Of a DNA stretch of 64,000 bases, positions 2,723 through 13,103 are shown piece by piece. The stretch lies in the NCBI GenBank assembly GCA_965208105.1, contig OZ242318.1, positions 1,984,001 through 2,048,000 on the forward strand. The letters are read 5' to 3'. The notes beneath the pieces are model-generated. The model ran no database searches, was not told the DNA's origin, and worked only from the letters and a program-made list of their open reading frames with translations. The position numbers and the translations under genes are program-made. This DNA is from Candidatus Latescibacterota bacterium (GTDB lineage: Bacteria > Latescibacterota > UBA2968 > UBA8231). How positions within the stretch are numbered: position 1 is the first letter of the stretch; each line of letters begins with the position of its first letter.

Positions 2723-3538
2723 CTACTCCTCGCCCATCTCCGCCAGCAGCCGTTTCACCACTCCCTTTTGCATTTGGCACCCCGACATCTGCAGCAGTTC
2801 GCAGACGTCATCCGACAGCTTGTCCTTGTGTTCCTCGATGGGTCCATACCCGGGCGACCATGAAGCATAGGAAGTGCCGTAGCGGATGAAGTAGGTGCGC
2901 CGCGGATCGTCGAGGGTCCAGCGCCGCCCGCCGTGGCAGAGCGTTTCCGTAAACAGGACCACATCCCCCGCCTTCGCATTGACGTTGGCAACCGTGGGCG
3001 GGCCGTCGTAGATGTTCACGTGCTCAGGCCTGCGGAAGTTCGACTTGTGGCTGCCGGGGATGCAAACGAATCCTCCGCCGGCGGGCACGTCCACCAGGGA
3101 AACGGCGGCGTTGAGGAAGTTTGCAAACACCCTCCCTTCGCTGGCCTGGTAATCGTTCGCCGGGTTGCGAAGCCCCCCCTCGAAGCCGCCGTGGAAGGCA
3201 ATTTCGTCCGATTCCTTCGTGTTTCGCGTGAGTCCGGTCGAGAGCAGTTGGGGATGGTTTCCCGTCAGCGCCAGCACCACCCGCATGATTTCGCGATTGA
3301 GAACCGTCCGCTGGAAGACCTCGTCGGCATACGGAGCGTTGTTGATGGAACGCGGGGTAGTCGACTTGGTGCTCCAATGGCTATAGGTCTTCAACGGCGG
3401 CGGCAGCTCACTGTCGTCGAGAGCGTGCCAGGTATCGCACAGCTCGACCATCCGCTTTACGTCCTCCTGCGGAACGGCCTGCTCTAGCACAATATAGCCC
3501 TGGAGATCGAACCACCATTTTTCTTCTTCGGTCAGCAT
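2723..3538 (-). CDS. Phytanoyl-CoA dioxygenase (PhyH)-family Fe(II)/2OG enzyme
   Basis: FDLQGYIVL, CIPGSHKS, AGDVVLFTETLCHG motifs. Confidence 0.85.
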   Translation of the reverse strand: MLTEEEKWWFDLQGYIVLEQAVPQEDVKRMVELCDTWHALDDSELPPPLKTYSHWSTKSTTPRSINNAPYADEVFQRTVLNREIMRVVLALTGNHPQLLSTGLTRNTKESDEIAFHGGFEGGLRNPANDYQASEGRVFANFLNAAVSLVDVPAGGGFVCIPGSHKSNFRRPEHVNIYDGPPTVANVNAKAGDVVLFTETLCHGGRRWTLDDPRRTYFIRYGTSYASWSPGYGPIEEHKDKLSDDVCELLQMSGCQMQKGVVKRLLAEMGEE

Positions 3539-3877: not shown

Positions 3878-4963
3878 CTAGGGACGCGCCCGGCCGTAGC
3901 GCGGCCTGACCCCGCCCCCGGCGCTGGACTCGTAGGCTGCTTCCACCACGGCCATGGTACGGTACGCATCCTCGATGGAGGTGGGCAGCTCCCCGGCGGA
4001 GCCTTCGAGAAAGCACTGCAGGCTGGCCATGGTGCCCACGAAGGCATCGGGATACCAGTTCCCTTCCGGCTCCACGGTGATCCACTCGCGCTCGCCGCCC
4101 TCGCCCATCACGCAGTACTCCAGCTCGTCCGGCCTGCCCCGCGGATAGTCGAGAACCACCCCGATCTGGGTGCGGACGGCGCCCCTGGTGCCTTCCCATT
4201 TCACGTAGCTCCACTGATGTCTGCCGCCGAAGTCGTGGCCGTGGTTGGTGGTTACGCTGGCGCGGACGTGGTCGCCGTAGTCCAGGATCACCGACGAGCG
4301 CGTGGCTTCCATATGCGCGGCGGAAGGATGCCTGGTGGTTTTGGCGTACACCCCTGCCGGATCGCCCAGGAAGGAGCGGACCAGGTCGAGGTAGTGGATG
4401 CTGTGGTAGACGATCTCCACCCGCGGAATCTGCGCCAGCCAGCCCCACAGGTGCCAGGGGGTGTGCGTGTTGACGTTGATCTCCATGTCGTGGATCTCGC
4501 CGATGGCCCCTTGATCGATCAGGCTGCGGGCGCCGGCGTTGCAGGGGGCGAAGCGAAGCTGGAAGTTGACCGCCGCGGTCAGCTTCTTGCGGCCGCAGAG
4601 GCCGCGAATCTCCCGCGCGTGCTCGAGATCCTCGCCCATGGGCTTCTGGATGAGTGCCGCGGCTCCGTCGGGCAGGGCGTCGACGATCCCGGGTATGGCG
4701 GATGCCGGTGTGGCGATGTCGAAGACGGCGTTCTGCTTCACCGCCGCCTCCACCGCCTCCTCCAGCGAGCCGTGCACGCAGGGAATCCCGAAGTCCGCGG
4801 CCAGCTTCTCGGCGGCCCCCCGGTCCTTGTCGTAAACACCCGCCACCGGAAAGCCGGATTTGCGGTAGGCCGGCAGGTGGGCGTCGCGCATGATGCCTCC
4901 CGCGCCGATACAGACGATGGGACGAGGGTCGATGGGAAGCCGGGGCTGCTGCTCGATTTTCAT
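3878..4963 (-). CDS. Gfo/Idh/MocA-family oxidoreductase
   Basis: IGAGGIM Rossmann motif, QKPMG, NFQLRFAP, HSIHYLD. Confidence 0.88.
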   Translation of the reverse strand: MKIEQQPRLPIDPRPIVCIGAGGIMRDAHLPAYRKSGFPVAGVYDKDRGAAEKLAADFGIPCVHGSLEEAVEAAVKQNAVFDIATPASAIPGIVDALPDGAAALIQKPMGEDLEHAREIRGLCGRKKLTAAVNFQLRFAPCNAGARSLIDQGAIGEIHDMEINVNTHTPWHLWGWLAQIPRVEIVYHSIHYLDLVRSFLGDPAGVYAKTTRHPSAAHMEATRSSVILDYGDHVRASVTTNHGHDFGGRHQWSYVKWEGTRGAVRTQIGVVLDYPRGRPDELEYCVMGEGGEREWITVEPEGNWYPDAFVGTMASLQCFLEGSAGELPTSIEDAYRTMAVVEAAYESSAGGGVRPRYGRARP

Positions 4964-9915: not shown

Positions 9916-10707
9916 CTAACAGTTTCCCTCCTCCAGATTGGAGAATGGCTGCACTCGATACCAATACCGGTACGTTTCGCTGAAACCATACTTCCGCTGC
10001 AGAGCCAGGGCAGGCTCGTTGTTGGCCATCACCTGCAGGTAAGCAAGGCGCGCCCCCTGTTCAAATCCCCATTTGAGGCGTGCCTCAAGGAGCCCGCTAC
10101 CGAAGCCCCGACCCCGATACTCTGTATCCACCAGCAAATCAAAGAGCCCCATGATCGAGCCCGAAACAACTGCTCGCGCGCAGCCTACAGATCTTCCCTC
10201 AGCCCGTGCGATAACATAGGCCGCAGGAGTGGAGACCGCGTTGAGTAAACTGCGGGCTACCTCCGAGTGCTGACTGCGATCGGACAGACGTCTCCAGGTT
10301 TCGAGCCACTCATCTGTCGCACTTTGGTATAACGATATGGCAGAGGAACAATCGGAACTGGTATCAAGCGGCTTGGTTAGAACCAGTGTATCCGCGTCTC
10401 TGGAGTACTGAAGCATGGCCAATTTCTCCTCCAAATCCACGGGTTGACAAGCAGGAAAAATCTTGAAAAGACAAGGTAGCGACGCCCGCGAGAACGCTGA
10501 TTCACAATGATCCAGCTTCTCCTTGAGCGGGGTTGTGGATCCATAGAGAGGGACTACACAGTTGGCACGGCGACTGTATCCCGCGGACATTCGAACGATC
10601 CAGCCGTCGAAGAACTCTGTTTTCAGCGCGGGCAGCCCGTTCAGCGCCGCCTCTTCCAGAGCTACTACAAGCTCTGGACTTTTCAATGAATCAAGTACTA
10701 TTGCCAT
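9916..10707 (-). CDS. GNAT acetyltransferase
   Basis: GYSRRANCV N-domain; YRGRGFGSGL, AYLQV, NEPALALQRKYGF; start chosen at ATG 10707 just inside an attC-like core. Confidence 0.85.
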   Translation of the reverse strand: MAIVLDSLKSPELVVALEEAALNGLPALKTEFFDGWIVRMSAGYSRRANCVVPLYGSTTPLKEKLDHCESAFSRASLPCLFKIFPACQPVDLEEKLAMLQYSRDADTLVLTKPLDTSSDCSSAISLYQSATDEWLETWRRLSDRSQHSEVARSLLNAVSTPAAYVIARAEGRSVGCARAVVSGSIMGLFDLLVDTEYRGRGFGSGLLEARLKWGFEQGARLAYLQVMANNEPALALQRKYGFSETYRYWYRVQPFSNLEEGNC

Positions 10708-10784
10708 AGGTTTCGATATGCCTATTTGGTGCTTCGGATAACGTTTCGCATTAGCCGAGGCCACATAGCGAGCTGCCGAAGGCC

Positions 10785-10949
10785 TAGTGTCCCGTCGCAG
10801 AGATAGGTTGACGCAATTGGGCCGCCGAGGCGCCAGGCTCACAAGGCGCCTGAGCGAGTCGTACCAGTGGTGTACGGCGAGTGAAGGCAACGCCGTGAGC
10901 CGGGATGGATCGGCGGAATAATGGCGACATATTTCTGCGACGGGACACT
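10785..10949. mobile_element. ~165-bp MITE with ~20-bp terminal inverted repeats, inserted at CTAG
   Basis: TAGTGTCCCGTCGCAGAGATA (10785) vs TATTTCTGCGACGGGACACT (10930-10949), 1 mismatch; terminal AG displaced to 12378-12379 by the IS110. Confidence 0.75.
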
Positions 10950-11021
10950 GATATGTATTGACGGTTGTCAACCCCCTCCGGGGTGGTCATTTCGGATGTT
11001 ATCTTTGCATGAGTTTGTTCG

Positions 11022-11188
11022 GGGACAGAAGGGACGCTGTAGCGACGGTTGATCCGACTGATATTCGCGGGTTGGCTACCGCCTGTCCTGGGTGCGTCGC
11101 GGAGCGGCCTCAATCTAGAGTCGAGGGTCAGCCTGAAAGGCGCCTCATAGTGTCTTCGAGGATTCTCCTGACCGGTCCCTTCTGTCCC
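11022..11188 (-). ncRNA. Putative IS110 bridge/seek RNA
   Basis: 14-bp perfect closing stem GGGACAGAAGGGAC/GTCCCTTCTGTCCC; internal GACACTA and CTAG match the target, ATATCAG matches the donor junction. Confidence 0.7.
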
Positions 11189-11242
11189 GTTTCGATTTAC
11201 ATGAGCAAAGGTCCTATGCCGGCTTCTGAGACGATGAGCTTA

Positions 11243-12262
11243 TCAGGCGGCGATCCGAGGTCTCCTGGCCACGAGGCGGCCGGGGCGTTTCTGCTCCCAG
11301 GCGATGGCCTGTATGGGGGGTGCGGTCTGTTCGGCGCGTCGTTGCAAGGCGGCCGTCTTGCGGGCGGGAAAGCGATAGCACCAGGCCGCTTCCACCAGCA
11401 CACGCCGCACGTGGGCGTTGCCCGCCTTGGTGATCGCCCCTCGCTTTTGCCGGGAGCCGCTGGAATGCTCGCTGGGGACCAGACCGACGAAGGCCATCAG
11501 TTGGCGCGGCGAGTCAAAGCGGGTGAGGTCCCCCAGCTCGGCCAGGGTCGTAACCGCGGTAAGCGTGTCTACCCCGCGCAGCGCCCTCATAGCCCGCGTC
11601 TCCCCTTCCAAAGACCACCCCTCCAAAGTCTGCTGCAGGGCCTGGTCCAACCCCTGGATCCGACCTTGGGCTTCCTGTACCGCGTCCACGTATTCCTGAA
11701 AGACGATCTGCTGGGCCGGATGATCGAAGCGCTGGGTCTCCAGCCAGCGAAAGTGGGCTTGGGTCCAGCGACTGCGCCCGGAGTAGATCCGGCCGTGGCG
11801 CTGCAAGAAGCTGTTCAGCCGCTGGCGCACGCGGCGCTCGGCGTGCTTGAAGTCTTCCCGGCAGCGCTCCAGGTCACGCATCGCCTCCTGCGCTTCGTCG
11901 GGCACCCACACGGGGGTCAACTCGCCGTGTTGGAAAAGCCGCACCAGAGACAGCGCATCGCGCCGGTCGGTCTTGATGCGGTCGCCCGGCCGCCGCGGGA
12001 TCAGCGAGGGCGCCACCACCGTGCAGGCGTGCCCCAGGGCTGTGAGCTGACGGTAGACGCCGTAGCCGCAGGGTCCGGCCTCGTAGCAAAACCGCAACGA
12101 GGTCCCACCACGGGCCAGTTGGCCCGCCAGCTTGGACAACGCGGCGTCCGTAGACGGTATCGTTCCATACAGGGCTGGCCCTTTTCGGCCTTCACCGGCC
12201 AGGGCGACGGTGATCGAATCTTTATGTATGTCCAAGGCGACGAATTTCGTAGATTTACGCAT
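11243..12262 (-). CDS. IS110-family transposase/recombinase; C-terminus looks shortened
   Basis: DEDD residues ALDIHK, CYEAG, KTDRRDA; GLVPSEHSSG catalytic-Ser loop; GNAHVRRVLVEAAW. Confidence 0.92.
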   Translation of the reverse strand: MRKSTKFVALDIHKDSITVALAGEGRKGPALYGTIPSTDAALSKLAGQLARGGTSLRFCYEAGPCGYGVYRQLTALGHACTVVAPSLIPRRPGDRIKTDRRDALSLVRLFQHGELTPVWVPDEAQEAMRDLERCREDFKHAERRVRQRLNSFLQRHGRIYSGRSRWTQAHFRWLETQRFDHPAQQIVFQEYVDAVQEAQGRIQGLDQALQQTLEGWSLEGETRAMRALRGVDTLTAVTTLAELGDLTRFDSPRQLMAFVGLVPSEHSSGSRQKRGAITKAGNAHVRRVLVEAAWCYRFPARKTAALQRRAEQTAPPIQAIAWEQKRPGRLVARRPRIAA

Positions 12263-12431
12263 GGCCTCCTCCTTCTCGCTGGGGATAGGTCTTTGGGTGA
12301 ACTCCGTTTTCCCAAAGATAACCCCCGACAACCGAGTCGGAGGAGGTCTTTCATATCTCCGTCAATACATAAGGTCTAGGCGGCGCAGAATTAGCCCGAT
12401 ATTATCGCTTCGAAGCTTCGTGGCTGCTCGA

Positions 12432-12701
12432 CTACAGCCGGGAAACAAGCTGCTCGTAACCAGCATGAGAGCCGATCCAGAACCAGACTATGAGACCTTC
12501 TGTTTGCACGCCCAAGGCACGGTAATCTCGTGTGACCCTGACAGCGTAGATCGGTTTGGTAGGATGAATCTTCTTGAATCGCAGACTCGGATGGTTTGGA
12601 TTATCCCGAAAACGGGCGTACGCTGCGGCCGCCTGAACCTGGACGTGCTGAGGAAGTTCGCGTAACGCTTTCCGAAAACGATCGGTTGTCCGGGATATCA
12701 T
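12432..12701 (-). CDS. RelE/ParE-like type II toxin
   Basis: 89 aa, HPSLRFKKI...VRVTRDYRALG...WFWIGSHAGY; 4-bp overlap with the upstream acidic ORF. Confidence 0.8.
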   Translation of the reverse strand: MISRTTDRFRKALRELPQHVQVQAAAAYARFRDNPNHPSLRFKKIHPTKPIYAVRVTRDYRALGVQTEGLIVWFWIGSHAGYEQLVSRL

Positions 12702-12916
12702 GAATCACGAGATTCGAAGGGCTCGGTCTTTCCTGATTGGTATTCAGCTACAGCCTCATCCGCCAGGGCAGTCAACTGCTCCGCTGTCGAGTCAAATGCG
12801 CGCTCCCACCGGCGCTCTGACTCCAGCTCCGAAATCAAAACAGCCGCAATCGCATCCTGCTCATCATTCGAGAGCTTCTTGATTTCCAAGATCGCCTTTT
12901 CCAGAAGTTGAGTCAT
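12698..12916 (-). CDS. Putative antitoxin
   Basis: Small acidic protein MTQLLEKAI...EQDAIAAVLISELE...LADEAVAEY coupled to the toxin. Confidence 0.75.
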   Translation of the reverse strand: MTQLLEKAILEIKKLSNDEQDAIAAVLISELESERRWERAFDSTAEQLTALADEAVAEYQSGKTEPFESRDS

Positions 12917-13103
12917 CGGAGTCCTCCTAATCAGGTGTTCGGCAAACTGTCGGGTTAAAGTAAATATAAGGAAGTCGCTCATGGAAGGTCTTGGTGAAAT
13001 TCCATACAGATGACGTTTTCCGAACCAGATTCGGAGGCGCTGAAGGACAGCCCGCTCTCAGGAGGCCTCTCCGATATCCACTCCAACTTCTACAGCCGCT
13101 TCC

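Follow-up and report, generated by a model that had tools for sequence, protein, structure and literature searches.

A predicted RNA-guided IS1111-group insertion sequence in the end of a MITE next to a probable attC remnant in a Latescibacterota genome

We identified nested mobile DNA within a 64,000-nucleotide stretch (the window) of the genome of a Candidatus Latescibacterota bacterium (GenBank assembly GCA_965208105.1, contig OZ242318.1, positions 1,984,001 to 2,048,000). The genome is a single contig of 4.85 Mb with 61.6% G+C. At the locus, an insertion sequence (IS) of the IS110 family, IS1111 group, lies in the tip of a 168-bp MITE (miniature inverted-repeat transposable element), which itself adjoins a sequence resembling part of an integron attC site. 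This nesting had been proposed from the sequence alone, and our analysis confirms the observation, with base-exact agreement for the IS and the MITE.

We consider it highly probable that the locus records three ordered insertions, the last of them by an RNA-guided IS. The starting point would be a degenerate solitary attC between cassettes for a ParE-type toxin-antitoxin pair and a GNAT acetyltransferase, 16 kb past the last attC of an integron array. The MITE would then have entered a CTAG within this attC, duplicating TA or CTAG as its target site duplication (TSD). Finally, the IS would have entered the tip of the right terminal inverted repeat (TIR) of the MITE, between ...GGGACACT and AG. 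The IS is predicted to have been aimed by its own two-arm seekRNA/bridge RNA, encoded in a 293-nt tail. In this RNA, AGACACUA would pair with the top strand TAGTGTC and ACUCUAGA with the bottom strand of Y-CTAG, and the two guide matches would overlap on the core dinucleotide (AG; CT on the window plus strand) that flanks the IS on both sides. Because the MITE TIRs are perfect and end in CTAG, each MITE copy offers two landing sites. The boundaries and copy statistics reported below were observed directly, whereas the order and age of the events are those that we infer.

The IS interrupts the end of a MITE

The plus strand of the window reads ...GCCGAAGGC/CTAGTGTCCCGTCGCAGA...TTTCTGCGACGGGACACT/GATATGTATTGACGG...CCGTCAATACATAAGGT/CTAG/GCGGCGCAG..., where slashes mark breaks at 10784, 10950, 12376 and 12380. 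The MITE (family A, plus strand) starts at 10784 with CTAGTGTCCC, its left tip being CTAGTGTCCCGTCGCAGA; 166 of its 168 bp precede the IS (10784-10949), and its right TIR is broken after ...GGGACACT, which runs up to 10949. The 1426-bp IS occupies 10950-12375 on the minus strand and is followed by CTAG at 12376-12379. The first two bases of this CTAG (12376-12377) are the second copy of the CT core (AG in transposase orientation), the first copy being 10948-10949. The other two (AG, 12378-12379, plus strand) are the final bases of the MITE right tip or TSD, split from the MITE by the IS. In-silico deletion of 10950-12375 plus one CT produces ...GGGACACTAG, the mirror of the left tip. The MITE rebuilt in this way is 168 bp long, and its tips form the perfect 18-bp inverted repeat CTAGTGTCCCGTCGCAGA, a match far beyond chance. 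The coordinates and bases of the IS and MITE ends given in the sequence-only reading are thus correct, and the order in which it nested the layers (attC-like site, then MITE, then IS) is right. Its further claim that all three layers can be rebuilt to the base holds for the IS and the MITE but not for the attC layer, for which we found no empty-site allele as verification.

We identified 12 copies of the IS in the genome. All 12 start with GATATGTATTGACGG and finish with CCGTCAATACATAAGGT (window orientation), and all are flanked as ...CACT/GATATGTATTGACGG...CCGTCAATACATAAGGT/CTAG. Ten lie in the tip of the 168-bp MITE, seven at the right end, as in the window, and three at the left end; the orientation of the IS relative to the MITE repeat is constant among these MITE-borne copies. 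The other two copies, at genome positions 2089784 and 3964970, have no MITE and lie at AACACT/AG and ACCACT/AG. Uninterrupted GACACTAG occurs 87 times in the genome, 74 times in MITE ends and 13 times elsewhere, and 10 of 84 exact MITE tips carry the IS. The sequence-only reading had called for a search for empty MITE copies and for other IS copies at the same CT. Both were found: GGGACACTAG occurs 75 times, the 74 MITE ends without an IS still read ...GACACTAG, and every IS copy (12/12) sits at this CT with identical ends.

Related IS copies were also detected in two other genomes. A copy in G016, from another genus (81% DNA identity), occupies the same base of a MITE-like end. A copy in G001, from the same genus (85% identity), lies at the site ...GGCACACT/AG. 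The G001 copy (L069) is decayed, with a longest open frame of 263 codons, and retains its ends and RNA region.

A predicted guide RNA matches the target

The 293-nt non-coding tail 3' of the transposase gene contains a seekRNA/bridge-RNA-like region (11021-11188, minus strand) that is predicted, from minimum free energy (MFE) folds and RNAalifold, to form an outer stem and two arms. In the MFE fold, AGACACUA (11148-11155, minus strand) and ACUCUAGA (11114-11121, minus strand) are on opposite sides of one internal loop in the first arm, the predicted target loop. In transposase orientation the intact target reads Y-CT-AG-TGTCCC. The 5' loop strand, AGACACUA, is complementary to TAGTGTC, which comprises the core and the MITE tip. 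The 3' loop strand, ACUCUAGA, is identical to (N)YCTAG, the top strand to the left of the insertion point, and would pair with the bottom strand; the target matches of the two strands overlap on the core, in TAG. Y precedes CTAG in 11 of the 12 IS flanks, and a guide U could pair with the A or G opposite it on the bottom strand. The second, putatively donor-side loop has a 3' strand, AAUAUCAG (11058-11065, minus strand), that corresponds to ATATC, the right end of the IS, together with the core AG. In L111, the sole related element with the right extension ACC, this strand is AUACCAG. The outer stem (ACGGGACA) shares 8 bases with the MITE repeat, which we regard as coincidental, since this stem is also retained in relatives that have other targets.

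We compared the predicted guides with the insertion sites of related elements. A scan of one genome per species returned 233 stretches that encode relatives, from which we retained 80 loci. Of these, 42 have an exact inverted repeat of at least 11 bp, and 29 of the 42 are anchored at both ends with enough flank; the 51 others were left out because no repeat was detected, the end motif did not fit or the flank was short. With the copies in G000, G001 and G016, the covariation set comprises 32 elements. AG closes the left flank in all 32 and opens the right one in 30. In 22 elements the last three bases of the left flank are TAG, and 15 of these have CTAG. The clade (L080-L159), which keeps the AG core, occurs in uncultured Gemmatimonadota, Nitrospirota, Gammaproteobacteria and others, and several of its targets resemble palindromic repeats (e.g. 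L126/L128 and L129).

A conserved CCTCG stem and a UGAGG stem enclose a strand that, in most of these elements, is reverse-complementary to the element's own right flank. Examples include AGGCUCCUA for ...AG/GAGCCU, GAAAUCUA for AG/AUUUC and CCGGGCUA for AG/CCCGG. Transposases of elements with differing targets are 57-85% identical. RNAalifold analysis of 21 aligned tails identified 42 pairs, 20 of which show compensatory changes, mostly in the outer stem. With the register of the loop strands fixed from this 21-tail alignment, 16 of the 21 rows show unbroken pairing of at least 7 bases between the 5' strand and its own target. Runs of the 5' strand average 6.4 for own targets versus 2.45 for the targets of other elements, and those of the 3' strand 5.1 versus 3.2. 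An earlier register-free test of the longest shared string was noisy, many elements having related targets (own target strictly best in 7 of 29 and tied in 10 of 29), and was replaced by the fixed-register test. The guide of the G001 copy, GCGCACUA, differs from that of the window copy by a change that compensates for its target, TAGTGTGC, with one G:T wobble, and the 3' loop strand of the G016 copy, CACUAG, matches its own flank. Both the structural and the guide-target covariation are direct observations. They support seekRNA/bridge-RNA-guided insertion as the predicted mechanism, in which the RNA would be made and would guide the recombinase.

The transposase and placement in the IS1111 group

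The transposase gene of the window copy (11243-12262, minus strand) encodes 339 aa. Its protein matches Pfam DEDD_Tnp_IS110 (PF01548, E 1.4e-13) and Transposase_20 (PF02371, E 1.6e-22); the two matches exceed the gathering score here and also in a full-length copy. An N-terminal DEDD/RuvC-like domain combined with a C-terminal Transposase_20 domain is the hallmark of the IS110 family.

Several features are shared with the IS1111 group. The sub-terminal inverted repeat is 13 bp long and perfect (11-13 bp expected), with TATGTATTGACGG at the right IS end in transposase orientation (10952-10964, plus strand) and CCGTCAATACATA at the left end (12359-12371, plus strand). Outside this repeat, anchored as ATGTATTGAC.../...GTCAATACAT, the IS extends by 7 bp on the left (AGACCTT) and by 3 bp on the right (ATC); the left extension includes one core copy, following the convention of Siddiquee et al. 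All 32 related elements examined have the same extension layout. The longer non-coding region lies downstream of the transposase gene (293 nt, versus 113 nt upstream), and GLVPSEHSSG at transposase residue 260 corresponds to the GL-P----S(T)G motif of the group. The putative seekRNA also has the expected layout in silico, with AGACACUA located 5' of ACUCUAGA. For comparison, the accessible part of PMC11187229 gives the IS1111 family a transposase of 330-350 aa and extensions of 7 and 3 bp, and describes IS1111-type seekRNAs as carrying the top-strand complement first, with matches that overlap in the target. Plasmid matches are named merely 'IS110 family transposase' and carry no subgroup information. 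We therefore assign the element to the IS1111 type of the IS110 family, with a caveat on protein length, as the sequence-only reading had implied.

The window copy differs from the others in length, at 1426 bp versus 1546-1548 bp in the 11 other copies. This difference reflects a 120-bp in-frame deletion in the transposase gene that is unique to the window copy (1/12). Full-length copies have two 13-bp direct repeats, GGCCATCGCCTGG, around the lost 120 bp, and the window copy retains one, at 11297-11309. The lost segment encodes 40 C-terminal residues (KAQKRLCGRYRRLSGRGMPKNKVCCAIARELLGFIWAIAW, KAQKRLCGRY...ARELLGFIWAIAW) and is conserved in seven of seven other aligned proteins (the full-length copy and six database relatives, one of them truncated near the end). 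The transposase is 379 aa long in 9 of the 12 copies under the same start codon, one further copy (genome 2923420) is frameshifted, and the closest relatives are mostly 364-378 aa long among the 120 matches listed. The window copy is probably non-autonomous, and its further movement would probably depend on full-length copies.

We also searched Logan assembled contigs from 4 of 24 listed runs (X1, X3, X4 and X15) over window positions 10500-12700. These contigs carry the undeleted form of the IS. None was seen to bridge the IS or the MITE at the locus, and thus no empty-site allele was detected among them, although contigs cannot prove absence. Near-identical MITE and IS sequence over the same positions is present in contigs from runs labelled sponge metagenome or bearing coded names.

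Near the right end of the IS (window 10950-10975), about 16 bp inward, is a perfect TTGACA hexamer. A junction promoter in the circular form has been reported for this IS family. The hexamer might serve as the -35 box of such a promoter in the circular form of the IS.

The outer layer is a probable attC remnant

To characterize the outer layer, we built a 94-position attC profile from 45 attC sites of the neighbouring array and searched with nhmmer. The left flank of the MITE, 10733-10793, scores 17.8 bits over positions 2-65 of the profile (E 2e-4 in 80 kb; E 0.012 genome-wide). Its first 14 bases are identical to the attC consensus, and its orientation is that of 48 main-array hits. In-silico excision of the MITE, the IS and one CTAG raises the score from 15.1 to 19.1 bits, the match reaching just position 63-64, and makes GGCCTAGGCG colinear with the array consensus GGCCAAGGCG across the junction. 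The remnant (10733-10783, plus strand) thus covers the R'-side two-thirds of an attC, from TTCGGATAAC... through the first hairpin to ...GCCGAAGGC. The right flank (12380-12431, plus strand), which reaches to where the ParE-like gene stops, is a possible decayed R'' side. Its match is weak and was not aligned by the hidden Markov model (HMM), and the GTT core and L'' are missing; GGCGGCGCAG continues the attC consensus, and the tail of that consensus, TTATTAGCC, has a similar sequence in ATTAGCC at 12390-12396.

With an R' end plus the first two-thirds of the site, a position at a cassette boundary and the orientation of the array, the left side is fairly named an attC remnant; a whole attC is not restored. 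The earlier suggestion that removing the MITE restores an attC-like sequence therefore stands for the R'-side two-thirds, which are colinear over the junction, and fails for about 30 profile positions that include the R'' core, the rebuilt site also folding unlike an attC. The MITE itself has no tie to attC, the attC layer is incidental, and the IS is aimed at the MITE and not at the attC.

The remnant is directly upstream of a minus-strand, cassette-like gene (9916-10707) for a 263-aa GNAT acetyltransferase (Pfam PF24553 and PF00583). On the other side is a minus-strand gene (12432-12701) for an 89-aa ParE-like toxin (Pfam PF24732, E 1.7e-12). It pairs with an overlapping 94-aa open reading frame (12698-12982, minus strand) that has no Pfam match and is likely the antitoxin. 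In G001, too, an attC-like R' end precedes the GNAT ortholog. That locus was considered and rejected as an orthologous empty site: the sequences diverge after the R' end, and a MITE lies about 100 nt on, at another position.

Weighing of alternative explanations

Several results weigh against three ordered insertions with an RNA-guided IS. The two IS copies outside MITEs occupy imperfect sites, AACACTAG and ACCACTAG, and the 13 perfect GACACTAG sites that the genome has outside MITEs are all without an IS; thus, matching to the loop is not by itself a full predictor of which sites are used. Five of the 21 rows fail in the fixed register (L109, L126, L131, L137 and L145). In a register-free search, L126, L131 and L145 have own-target matches of 7, 10 and 8 bases adjoining the same CCTCG stem; L109 and L137 reach just 5 and 6 bases, the match in L137 lying away from that stem. 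Three copies within the genome with variant 3' strands (ACCAUAGA or ACCCUAGA) fit their own flanks no better and give no covariation signal. For the 5' strand of the donor loop, comparison by eye with the left IS end (AGACCTT) gave no match in any register tried. Single-sequence fold z-scores are modest (-1.5 and -2.0), and no Rfam family matches the IS locus at E up to 1. Contigs from an RNA library cover parts of the transposase gene and 11083-11167, in the target-loop region, and these possibly represent DNA carry-over or relatives and are not proof of transcription. The full-length transposase, at 379 aa, is outside the 330-350 aa range of IS1111. In the outer layer, profile positions 65-94 (the L''/R'' end with the GTT core) are not recovered after in-silico excision, and the rebuilt site has a fold z-score of -0.2, versus -1.3 to -5.0 for five real attC sites.

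These outer-layer results favour the view that the outermost sequence is no attC but ordinary intergenic DNA that resembles the consensus by chance or through shared local composition, as do the incomplete match to the profile, its genome-wide E value and the 16 kb of distance from the last array attC, with non-cassette genes between. We regard this view as unlikely, though it is the most credible of the alternatives. The 14 opening bases equal the consensus R' end in the orientation of the array, the site fills exactly the gap from a stop codon to the start of the next cassette-type gene, and its neighbours are a ParE-like toxin-antitoxin pair and a GNAT gene. The G001 ortholog likewise follows an attC-like R' end, and the 49 attC hits outside the main array include solitary ones. 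Far less credible is that the transposase protein picks the site through the MITE repeat, with the loop complementarity incidental. The empty perfect sites outside MITEs hint at some extra context, and the guide RNA is known here from sequence and folds alone. Nevertheless, the loop strands co-vary with the flanks over many targets while the proteins remain 57-85% identical, and reprogramming of IS1111-type seekRNAs by experiment has been published (PMC11187229, accessible part); we hold the protein-choice explanation to be improbable.

Two further explanations have almost no standing in our judgement. One is that the IS belongs to the attC-targeting IS1111 elements (ISKpn4/ISPst6-like) and was drawn by the attC, with the MITE a bystander. 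IS1111 elements that target one attC end exist (PMC11187229, accessible part) and the locus is attC-like, yet both IS flanks are MITE sequence here, 10 of 12 copies are in MITE ends and attC sequence flanks none of the 12. The copy at genome 1049553 lies in an attC cluster yet sits in a MITE end with no attC hit, and the loop strands spell the MITE tip and not attC. The other is that the MITE and IS form one composite, the MITE being an extended IS end, or that the MITE inserted beside a resident IS. The two do adjoin in 10 of 12 IS copies; however, 74 MITE ends have no IS, two IS copies have no MITE, either MITE end is used, and removal of the IS yields a perfect 18-bp TIR.

The chromosomal integron and the MITE families

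We identified a large chromosomal integron at window positions 26545-64000 and on to genome 2061300 (L059). Its 48 attC hits all point the same way and alternate with small minus-strand genes. The array repeats are about 90 bp long with ATAAC...GTTAT ends, and their folds show an R box, a bulge, an L box and variable hairpins. At the end of the array, 13 kb past the window end, is an integrase-like frame, which matches TIGR02249 with 130 and 106 bits, below the 265-bit cut-off, and has an in-frame TAA near its start. The genome contains 97 attC profile hits in total (E up to 0.05), 48 in the main array and 49 elsewhere. The outlying hits are mostly in clusters with no nearby integrase (resembling clusters of attC sites lacking integron integrases, CALIN), together with solitary sites. 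These outlying hits are at genome 286-289, 1037-1054, 1076-1080, 2487, 2738-2751, 3335-3338, 4470-4490 and 4606-4613 kb. A second nest of MITE and IS, at genome 1049387-1051098, lies within one attC cluster (hits at 1045964 and 1053768 on either side) and outside any attC.

A BLAST search with the 168-bp unit identified 133 loci in the genome, 90 of them near full length, with 71-100% identity; the copy at genome 2453978 is 100% identical over 168 bp. A short non-coding unit with a perfect 18-bp TIR and this many copies is characteristic of a MITE. Its ends are CTAG...CTAG, a palindrome compatible with duplication of either TA or CTAG, both of which lead to the same empty site. A search of the joined flanks of the 90 copies for paralogous empty sites gave a single, self-overlapping match only. 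No transposase-bearing element with the MITE repeats, which could be an autonomous partner, was found in our search. The one long pair of repeat cores is at genome 1703678-1711827 (L160), where left and right MITE repeat cores lie 8.1 kb apart around metabolic genes (PhyH-type dioxygenase and amidohydrolase) with no transposase; this stretch is either a split MITE or a MITE-bounded segment. No other MITE copy in the genome lies within an attC hit, and the MITE does not favour attC.

Another MITE family, with units of about 168 bp, shares its central 97 bp with the first (about 86% identity) and has other terminal repeats (CTAGTGCCTGCTTGCG...), with ends reading ...CAGGCACTAG. We examined at least 14 copies, for example genome 142580-142746. 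None of 33 tips of this family that end in GGCACTAG, one base off the IS target, carries the IS.

Relation to known systems and significance

Each layer of the locus is a known kind of mobile DNA, and the locus reveals no new mechanism. Partridge and Hall reportedly described in 2003 how IS4321 and IS5075, of the IS1111 family, insert in the 38-bp terminal repeats of Tn21-family transposons. These elements are said to resemble the present IS in their orientation-specific insertion at a fixed position in the TIR of another transposon and in their sub-terminal inverted repeats; unlike them, the present IS, from an environmental genome, targets a non-coding MITE of 168 bp and uses both of its ends. 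The IS4321 target is also mentioned in the accessible part of PMC11187229.

The nearest parallel with a MITE is in Coxiella burnetii, where 20 of 21 annotated IS1111 copies lie in QMITE2 (PMC5896051, accessible part). In that system too, the MITE is a landing site and MITE copies with and without an IS exist. The QMITE2 target is a GTAG palindrome inside the MITE (same source), whereas here it is the outermost TIR tip plus CTAG, and the host, MITE and IS sequences differ. Literature on IS1111/IS110 elements with MITEs also includes work on ISPpu9 and repetitive extragenic palindromic (REP) sequences.

The putative guide RNA resembles the seekRNAs of ISEc11, ISPa11, ISKpn4 and ISPst6 (Siddiquee et al. 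2024, PMC11187229, accessible part). These likewise come from a non-coding region 3' of the transposase gene and have two short overlapping matches with the top-strand complement on the 5' side. The same four elements are also alike in their 7- and 3-bp extensions, the GL-P----SG motif and natural retargeting through the matching bases. The present element differs from them in its 379-aa transposase (versus 330-350 aa), in its target and in being known here from sequence alone. According to the same source, ISKpn4 and ISPst6 target attC ends; direct insertion of this kind is not what we observe, since MITE sequence is on both flanks in 10 of 12 copies. IS621, of the IS110 group, is similar in having a target loop and a donor loop in its RNA and a CT core on both sides, going by the accessible parts of PMC13626964 and PMC13396178 and otherwise by report. 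Its RNA is reportedly upstream of the recombinase, its strand-match order reversed and sub-terminal repeats lacking, unlike the arrangement here.

The locus is a clean natural example of what we predict to be RNA-guided transposition that can be read from sequence, with the guide loop, target and core dinucleotide all locatable. Its relatives from uncultured bacteria extend this to many targets, with guide strands that change with the flanks. The locus also illustrates the stacking of mobile elements in cassette-rich regions of an environmental genome, and includes one likely non-autonomous IS deletion derivative.

A broader possibility, which we put forward tentatively and think somewhat doubtful, is that the IS lineage is a standing hyperparasite of one MITE family, its guide fixed on the TIR tip plus CTAG, and that the two form a co-evolving two-level parasite system and not a chance nesting. 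The pairing kept across genera (G000 and G016) and the compensatory guide change in G001 would be in line with such a system. If so, every MITE burst would make new landing pads for the IS at both ends of each copy, and each IS insertion, by cutting the repeat tip, would probably immobilise the MITE copy that received it.

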